The notes beneath the pieces are model-generated. The model saw nothing but the letters and a program-made list of their open reading frames with translations. It had not been told where the DNA came from and ran no database searches. This document shows positions 9,167-9,346 of a stretch of 32,000 nt of DNA, one piece after another. The stretch's first letter is position 1. The number at the start of each line of letters is the position of its first letter. Made by a program: the position numbers and the translations under genes. Source of the stretch: Candidatus Heimdallarchaeota archaeon. GTDB lineage: Archaea; Asgardarchaeota; Heimdallarchaeia; Heimdallarchaeales; Heimdallarchaeaceae. Location: the NCBI GenBank assembly GCA_030603365.1, contig JAUVXV010000004.1, forward strand, positions 261,569-293,568, written 5' to 3'.

Positions 9167-9346
9167 CCTAGTAAGGATTTCAGGTTCGGAATGGGTCTGA
9201 GTGTTACCCCCTCACTATGGCCGCGACGTATCGCAGCGAATGGCTGTTCCCAAGTGATCTCTCAACTTAGTACAGAGCCACACGTCGAAGGGCTTAACTA
9301 TCCCGAACATCTGGAATGCCTCCAGATGCTTTCTGACCTTACTAGG
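9167..9346 (-). rRNA. 5S rRNA gene, circularly permuted (3' half, UACG cap, 5' half), with extra leader/trailer helix and hairpin
   Basis: The reverse complement contains every 5S element, in permuted order:
- GUUAAGCCCUUC (loop B and helix II 3' strand)
- GUGGCU...CUGUACU AAGU UGAGAGAUC ACUU GGGAAC AGCCAU (helix V, loop E, helix IV)
- GCUGCGA-UACG-UCGCGGC (helix I closed as a hairpin)
- CAUAGU GAGGGG GUAACAC UCAG ACCCAUUCCGAAC CUGA (loop A, helix II 5' strand, helix III, loop C)
The GC-rich island stands out against the AT-rich background. ORF track entry 9191..9376 is spurious. Confidence 0.8.

Follow-up and report, generated by a model that had tools for sequence, protein, structure and literature searches.

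In archaea, the leader and trailer of the pre-16S and pre-23S rRNAs pair into a helix with 3-nt bulges 4 bp apart, the bulge-helix-bulge (BHB) motif, and cleavage by EndA followed by ligation by RtcB, enzymes that are universal in archaea, gives circular pre-rRNAs. Circular 16S and 23S rRNAs made through BHB motifs are described from archaea including the Asgard group, and circular 23S rRNA is found inside ribosomes (PMC12918454), being retained there in some lineages. Here we analyze a 32,000-nt stretch of DNA, referred to as the window, from the assembly GCA_030603365.1 of Candidatus Heimdallarchaeota archaeon (contig JAUVXV010000004.1, positions 261,569 to 293,568 of the forward strand), in which the minus strand from 9346 to 9167 carries an element that we identify as a circularly permuted 5S rRNA gene. 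As in the 16S and 23S precursors, the ends of its transcript can pair into a helix next to two 3-nt stretches set 4 bp apart, and the product predicted from this arrangement is again a circular rRNA. The element differs from those precursors in that the substrate is 5S rRNA, whose circularization is reported as not known (PMC12918454), in that the stem has just 10 + 4 bp and no inner helix, in that one strand of the central helix, the 3' one, also belongs to a functional rRNA helix, and in that the gene itself is permuted.

A second likeness is to the permuted tRNA genes of Cyanidioschyzon merolae and Thermofilum pendens, which pass through a BHB-generated circular intermediate. In those genes, as in this one, the 3' half precedes the 5' half and a leader and trailer pair beside the junction that is to be joined, and their relaxed BHB motifs, used by broad-specificity endonucleases, also resemble the present case. 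In permuted tRNAs, RNase P and tRNase Z reopen the circle and thereby restore the natural ends, whereas the natural ends of this 5S are replaced by a 4-nt UNCG tetraloop, so that any circle made would be expected to stay closed as the final product.

Three further systems are related to parts of the arrangement. The permuted mitochondrial 5S rRNAs of brown algae and other stramenopiles likewise have their ends away from helix I and a gene that stays permuted (Valach et al. 2014, PMC4267664). There, however, the α domain alone is rearranged, a 5' or 3' hairpin replaces helix I, the ends lie at the α/γ junction and the RNA is linear and has no BHB, whereas the present element is a true circular permutation with a closing helix and with ends inside helix III (β domain). 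The 5S rRNA of Halococcus morrhuae, with its 108-nt insertion, is also archaeal and keeps a canonical core while carrying extra helices at a multi-way junction (PMC7530397); it differs in its normal gene order and ends and in the site of the insertion. Finally, the permuted 23S rRNAs of Pyrococcus and Thermococcus (PMC7758197; bioRxiv 10.64898/2026.03.23.713588) provide a permuted mature rRNA topology tied to BHB circularization, but they derive from a gene in normal order by circularization and then excision elsewhere, whereas here the gene is permuted.

Identification of a circularly permuted 5S rRNA gene

Read directly, the minus strand from 9346 to 9167 comprises CCUAGUAAGG-UCAG-AAA-G, an 8-bp hairpin and UUCGGGAU-AGUUAAGCCC..., continuing with GCUGCGA-UACG-UCGCGGC-CAUAG... 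and CAC-UCAG-ACCCAUUCCGAAC-CUGA-AAU-CCUUACUAGG, after which there is a run of six T. No 5S rRNA is found at the locus by Rfam at the gathering threshold. In a permissive scan the 5S family RF00001 scores 22 bits in gene order, against a gathering score of 38, with the 3' part alone aligned, which is the expected outcome for a permuted gene. In order to de-permute the element, the sequence was rotated so that it begins just 3' of the UACG loop, and the 60-nt segment that separates CUGA from AGUUAAG was taken out. In this form it aligns end to end with the genuine archaeal 5S genes of loci L039 and L006 with scores of 34.5 and 42, respectively, as compared with -7 ± 4 and -5 ± 4 for shuffled sequences and with 1 and -8 for the sequence in gene order.

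Proteins encoded next to the element assign the window to Asgard archaea, their closest records being annotated as Heimdallarchaeota. Twenty distinct homologous sequences were assembled from the syntenic site between yccF/flavodoxin and hypE, from a metagenome scan for the permuted motif order and from spurious open reading frames (ORFs) lying over the RNA gene. They represent three Heimdall-group Asgard lineages, namely clade A, L088 and the group L101-106/L113, the last of which has another neighborhood with a CTP-transferase-like gene and a Ras-like GTPase. Variants were counted on all 20 sequences, structures were tested on an alignment of 17 (A2), and a second alignment (A1) contained 12. 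On A2 the permuted-5S model leaves 98.1% of cells paired, and 26 pairs are changed on both sides, versus 5.1 ± 1.7 after shuffling and no more than 5 for slid controls. Once the sequence is rotated, helices I-V and the conserved loops A, C and E are collinear with 5S rRNA and every helix is supported. An earlier note on this DNA had described a permuted 5S, and the alignment scores together with the covariation bear this out: the comparison shows the predicted RNA to be a true circular permutation of the 5S rRNA of a Heimdall-group Asgard archaeon. The same alignments place the new ends within the 3' strand of helix III in the β domain, exactly at the helix III bulge, between CUGA and AGUUAAG.

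Helix I consists of 7 bp, three of them compensated, and is capped by UGCG in 12 variants, UACG in four and UUCG in four. There is no intervening sequence or processing signal between the natural 3' and 5' ends, just this conserved 4-nt UNCG loop. Loop C is nearly invariant, with one variable column in 13. The extra hairpin is absent from ordinary 5S rRNA and belongs to the insertion within the helix III 3' strand; in the homologue alignment 98.5% of the cells of its stem are paired and three pairs are changed on both sides. The linker that follows it has the consensus NUCRGGAA, in which C, GG and A are invariant. Extension of the hairpin by an 18:40 pair or by GAC/GUC was rejected, these being paired in some subclades only.

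Two stretches of the insertion recur in the 5S body on the minus strand. The leader UCAGA (9333-9337) repeats the helix III 5' strand (9196-9200), and CAUUCC in the loop and 3' strand of the extra hairpin (9313-9318) is identical to a part of loop C (9187-9192). Over its first 47 nt the element resembles a degenerate duplicate of the helix III/loop C arm, which suggests that the permuted gene may have arisen via partial tandem duplication. At L039 (6210-6461, minus strand), from Halorussus amylolyticus, a full 5S (93.7 bits) is preceded about 30 nt away by a weaker 5S copy (54.5 bits), and such a tandem could be the kind of natural arrangement from which a permuted gene arises.

The ORF at 9191-9376 (plus strand) over the element was rejected as spurious, its database relatives being solely ORFs called over the same RNA gene elsewhere; public "hypothetical proteins" (e.g. 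ES705_50191; P0105-P0115) are such ORFs, on either strand. The permuted 5S apparently carries no RNA annotation in the source records, and a permuted gene would account for the failure of standard tools to detect a 5S in these genomes, whose public records have spurious proteins over the gene instead. A genome-collection scan with a loose permuted-order pattern returned 58 loci with no relatives among them, the hits being chance matches or back-to-back ordinary 5S genes, and synteny via more distant flavodoxin homologues (P0028, P0043, P0054) yielded no 5S.

The terminal helix and the transcript ends

The minus-strand arms CCUAGUAAGG (9346-9337) and CCUUACUAGG (9176-9167) are perfectly complementary over 10/10 positions (inverted repeat I12), as the earlier note had it. 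Among 500 AT-rich bases, one perfect inverted 10-mer repeat would by itself be only marginally unexpected. Across the homologues 98% of the cells of this helix are paired and nine of the ten pairs are changed on both sides. The arms are rewritten in L088 (UCUAAUGGUA/UGCCAUUAGA) and again in L102 (CUCAACGAUG/CACCGCUGAG, with two A•C mismatches), and between clades they are 35-40% identical, versus 78-84% for the remaining RNA; divergence of this kind is as expected for a part needed for structure alone. This pattern of compensation shows the predicted terminal helix to be a closing helix that joins both ends of the primary transcript.

A TATA-like A/T box at 9369-9377 is centered about 26 nt upstream of G9347, where transcription probably starts, and in the homologues T-rich runs also come directly after the 3' arm. 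Since the promoter block upstream and the T-run after the 3' arm are both conserved, the primary transcript would start and end at the terminal helix.

The candidate central helix and its flanking nucleotides

Adjoining the terminal helix, the leader continues with UCAG (9336-9333) and then AAA (9332-9330), and on the other side CUGA (9183-9180) and then AAU (9179-9177) precede the trailer arm. The spacing, 10 bp-4-3 on the 5' side and 4-3-10 bp on the 3' side, is invariant in 20 of the 20 variants and hence in all three lineages. The leader CAG is equally invariant despite the rewritten arms that adjoin it, and its sole complement in the RNA is the CUG of CUGA. The first leader nucleotide is U in 15 variants and G in five, making with position 168 a U-A pair in 14, a G•A in five and a U•G in one, and standard pairs (Watson-Crick or G•U) are present at all four positions of the central helix in 15 variants. 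On A2 the leader UCAG:CUGA pairing has 97% of cells paired, with no both-side change and one U•G (L097).

The two flanking stretches are always 3 nt long. The 5' one is AAA in 10 variants, ACA in eight, AUA in one and UAA in one, with the third A invariant, and the 3' one is AAA in 14 and AAU in six, with the first two A invariant. When the canonical EndA cut is placed after the second bulge nucleotide, the nucleotides that such a cut would keep (A17, A169 and A170) are invariant and those that it would discard (15, 16 and 171) vary, a split for which the chance is 1 in 20. In L114 (261-440, plus strand), which is Logan-assembled, G10 is replaced by A (A•C) and position 11 is G (G•A) beside the 3' bulge. 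This double change would disrupt the proposed 3' cut site; it may reflect true variation or an error of assembly, and G10 is kept in the sister contigs L115 and L116.

A canonical hBHBh' motif has a central helix (H) of exactly 4 bp, two 3-nt bulges on opposite strands, each 3' of its strand of H, and on the two sides an outer helix (h) and an inner helix (h') of at least 2 bp each, the inner one continuing both strands. The element has the outer helix, with 10 bp, and lacks the inner one. The relaxed hBH type asks for one intact h-B-H half-site, while its second site may be in a loop or an unclosed bulge 4 bp away, and the element does contain these parts, namely the 10-bp h, the 3-nt 3' bulge, the 4-bp H and a 3-nt single strand. 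The earlier note had read the segments correctly and had described a 4-bp helix flanked by a 3-nt bulge on each strand, in the geometry of archaeal BHB motifs. Each stretch does lie 3' of its helix strand, and both the outer helix and the 3-4-3 spacing hold up. A true bulge, between two helices, is present at the 3' side only; the 5' stretch is not closed by an inner helix and opens into the junction. The note rightly called the inner helix weak, one inner G-C pair being possible, and the geometry falls short of a canonical hBHBh'. Comparison of homologous loci, which the note had proposed as a check, finds the 10-bp helix compensated and the 3-4-3 spacing kept, with no compensatory change in the 4-bp helix. 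Judged by sequence and pairing, the motif is at best of the relaxed hBH or bulge-helix-loop type and not a canonical BHB.

Asgard EndA is reported to be of the (αβ)2 type with an L1 loop, which has broad specificity and cleaves relaxed hBH and HBh' motifs (PMC5829648), and according to the published work it should accept motifs of this sort. In clade B, a tRNA-His(GTG) gene beside the permuted 5S (L102, 2838-2927, plus strand; L113, 2723-2812, minus strand) has a 16-nt intron at 37/38 with a textbook 3-4-3 hBHBh', in which H is CUGU paired with GCAG, the bulges are GG/U and AC/A and the inner helix has 2 bp. The same lineage thus uses canonical 3-4-3 BHBs. The L113 copy is mislabeled as tRNA-??? 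by ARAGORN.

Several other structures were considered around the motif and not retained. An "inner helix" UCGGGAU:AUUCCGA appears in the minimum free energy (MFE) fold and would sequester loop C; it was rejected, being 82% paired on A1 with each substitution breaking a pair. An RNAalifold alternative, UCGGG:CCUGA, is unsupported (94% paired, five variants broken at column 41, no both-side change). A K-turn or box C/D-like reading of CUGA and the terminal stem was rejected by inspection, the GA lying 3 nt from the stem with no UGAUGA partner, and a tandem G•A internal loop (GA/GA) was rejected on account of the variable positions 15-16.

Competition between the leader and helix III

The CUGA segment serves 5S helix III as well, as its 3' strand, with the UCAG at 9200-9197 as the partner in cis, and the leader UCAG has the same sequence as this helix III 5' strand. 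On A2 the helix III UCAG:CUGA pairing is 100% paired, with one compensatory change from U-A to C-G (L097). The leader:CUGA pairing is the one present in the MFE fold of the RNA from the window (-70.8 kcal/mol, z = -4.7), and in the full-length ensemble its mean probability is 0.57, versus 0.17 for helix III. When the 5S core is held fixed, the leader and helix III conformers are about 1-3 kcal/mol apart. The modeling therefore upholds the competing pairing that the earlier note had taken for a switch between precursor and mature conformations, the two conformers being predicted to be nearly iso-energetic with a fixed core. As leader:CUGA outcompetes helix III in the predicted full-length fold, an unprocessed RNA would disfavor an essential 5S helix. 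The fixed-core models are so close that thermodynamics cannot choose between them, and covariation cannot decide between the competing pairings either, since the homologues span just ~78-92% identity and CUGA is almost invariant.

Models of maturation

The arrangement is consistent with the following path. In the full-length transcript the leader UCAG would pair with the trailer CUGA and so complete a relaxed hBH motif in which the 10-bp terminal helix is h; by stacking, the extra hairpin may take the place of the missing inner helix. A broad-specificity (αβ)2 splicing endonuclease would cut after nucleotide 2 of each 3-nt stretch (9331/9330 and 9178/9177), and RtcB-type ligation would join A9178 to A9330 to give a 153-nt covalently closed 5S rRNA. 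The junction predicted for the window is ...CATTCCGAACCTGAAA/AGCATCTGGAGGCATT (9178 joined to 9330), and that for the ACA-type variants is ...CCGAACCTGAAA/AACATCTGG. Removal of the leader would free CUGA to form the canonical helix III with the internal UCAG, and the mature RNA would have an ordinary 5S core in which a UNCG loop caps helix I and helix III contains a three-way junction with a single extra hairpin. We consider EndA cleavage and ligation to a 153-nt circular 5S the favored possibility, put at a little under an even chance.

A number of observations weigh against this path. Archaeal 5S, unlike 16S and 23S, is stated not to be known in circular form (PMC12918454). Because a stable tetraloop caps helix I, circularization is not needed for the topology of the 5S; linear permuted 5S RNAs exist in organelles (PMC4267664), and the 5S of Halococcus accommodates additional helices at a four-way junction (PMC7530397). 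The central helix has no compensatory change or independent covariation across the homologues, and its first pair is G•A in five of the 20 variants (L081, L088 and L114-116), which come from three lineages. No inner helix h' is conserved, as 18:164 is G-C in just 11 of the 20 variants and neither 19:163 nor 20:162 is paired in any of them, and with h' missing the 5' cut site would sit in a junction loop. The sole compensated change in CUGA (A to G, L097) restores helix III, whereas the leader merely tolerates it as U•G. Helix III, moreover, should form first in transcription.

Many of these points are accommodated by a linear permuted 5S rRNA in which the primary transcript is the mature RNA and no endonuclease acts, a plausible outcome that we rate clearly below an even chance. 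The 10-bp helix would then close and protect the new ends, as helix I does in ordinary 5S, helix III would use the internal UCAG, and a four-way junction in helix III would carry both the terminal helix and the extra hairpin. The resemblance to a BHB would be a by-product of the origin of the gene by partial tandem duplication of the helix II/loop B/helix III arm, from which the leader UCAG would survive as a second helix III 5' strand; this copy might serve to switch folding or assembly, or might contact a protein. Consistent with such an RNA are the change at CUGA that favors helix III, the G•A pairs of the leader helix and the missing inner helix, as well as the repeats of helix III/loop C sequence in the leader UCAGA and the hairpin CAUUCC, which would fit a relic of duplication. 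There is essentially no leader or trailer outside the helix, as in stand-alone archaeal 5S genes, the 5' arm is almost invariant inside clade A, and both the linear final product of the organellar permuted 5S (PMC4267664) and the insertion tolerated at the four-way junction of the Halococcus 5S (PMC7530397) offer precedents. What a linear RNA leaves unexplained, however, is the invariance of the leader CAG beside arms that are wholly rewritten between clades, and the exact split of the bulges into retained positions that are invariant and discarded ones that vary. An intact leader is furthermore predicted to outcompete helix III in most variants, and the clade-B terminal helix with its two A•C mismatches would be a weak permanent closing stem.

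The leader:CUGA pairing might also be a conformer of the precursor alone that is resolved without ligation, either through trimming by another nuclease or through a single EndA cut at the 3' bulge, leaving a linear, shortened permuted 5S. The 3' bulge alone has helices on both sides, and the near iso-energetic conformers and the conserved leader CAG would also be accounted for, but nothing specific points to another nuclease and EndA products are normally ligated by RtcB; we regard this course as unlikely. A decaying 5S pseudogene or a chance inverted repeat would agree with the Rfam 5S score in gene order, which is below the gathering score, and is effectively refuted by covariation. Compensatory changes occur in every helix, and the 20 variants span three lineages and two genomic neighborhoods. 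The promoter and terminator are conserved as well, the functional loops A, C and E are invariant and the G+C content of the element is 51% versus 34% for the window, so that an origin of this kind appears most improbable.

On the circular interpretation, the Heimdall-group clade would obtain its sole 5S rRNA from the permuted gene, with the circle matured by EndA and RtcB functioning in the ribosome and the leader decoy of helix III serving as a switch between precursor and mature forms. We advance this combined proposal only tentatively, as rather doubtful in its entirety. In archaea 5S is regarded as essentially constant and as the sole rRNA that is not circularized, and in the literature searched no permuted or circular archaeal 5S and no BHB-processed 5S is described. 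If the proposal is true, circular 5S rRNA and BHB processing of 5S would each have their first example here, and so would permutation of an rRNA gene in a cellular rather than an organellar genome. BHB-based rearrangement of RNA would then include the third rRNA as well, in the group of archaea that stands closest to eukaryotes, and a natural ribosome would be built with a topologically rearranged, possibly circular, 5S. The sequence of the circular junction is predicted to the nucleotide and hence directly testable. None of the 11 ORF-derived database proteins crosses the predicted junction, all having the genomic order only, a result that is uninformative as the data are mostly DNA assemblies.

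Features of the locus and its surroundings

The coordinates of the features are compiled in Table 1.

Table 1. Features of the permuted 5S rRNA locus, in window coordinates and in the order of transcription.
Feature	Position	Strand	Remarks
Promoter-like block CCAATAGTAAAGATTAAAAAAC, archaeal type	9368-9389	-	Distance fixed in all clade-A homologues; putative promoter function
5' arm of terminal helix, CCUAGUAAGG; outer helix h of the proposed motif	9337-9346	-	10/10 complementary to 9167-9176
Leader UCAG; candidate 5' strand of the 4-bp central helix H	9333-9336	-	Partner CUGA 9180-9183
5' "bulge" AAA	9330-9332	-	Canonical EndA cut would lie between 9331 and 9330
Extra hairpin, G + CAUCUGGA-GGCAU-UCCAGAUG	9308-9329	-	8-bp stem, inverted repeat I21
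Linker UUCGGGAU from extra hairpin to AGUUAAG	9300-9307	-	No partner supported by comparison
5S 3' two-thirds: helix II 3' strand, helices V and IV, loop E, helix I 3' strand	9231-9299	-	Partial RF00001 match; covariation in helices II, IV and V
UACG tetraloop capping helix I, at the usual 5S 5'/3' ends	9227-9230	-	UNCG in every homologue
5S 5' third: helix I 5' strand, loop A CCAUAG, helix II 5' strand, loop B	9184-9226	-	Covariation and de-permuted alignment
Helix III 5' strand UCAG, within the 5S 5' third	9200-9197	-	
Loop C, within the 5S 5' third	9196-9184	-	
CUGA; 3' strand of 5S helix III and candidate 3' strand of the central helix	9180-9183	-	Claimed by two UCAG segments
3' bulge AAU, between the 4-bp and 10-bp helices	9177-9179	-	Canonical EndA cut would lie between 9178 and 9177
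3' arm of terminal helix, CCUUACUAGG	9167-9176	-	Complementary to 9337-9346
T6 run directly 3' of the 3' arm	9161-9166	-	Probable archaeal oligo-T terminator

The tRNA-Ser(GCT) gene at 9476-9560 (plus strand) is divergent from the 5S promoter and is a neighbor of the permuted 5S throughout clade A. Between this gene and hypE lies an ORF of 182 aa (9662-10210, minus strand) with an N-terminal hydrophobic segment. ORFs of 158-184 aa are found at the same site in L107-L109 and are absent in L059, L061, L064 and L110, and since a comparable ORF is present in some relatives and absent in others, the site appears to be a variable insertion point. Genes for hydrogenase maturation and for the hydrogenase complex, namely hypE, hypF and a NuoH/Mbh-like membrane subunit, are located at 10332-14960 (plus strand) and 178-4819 (minus strand). 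Synteny with relatives places DNA gyrase B upstream of the MiaB-like radical-SAM gene.

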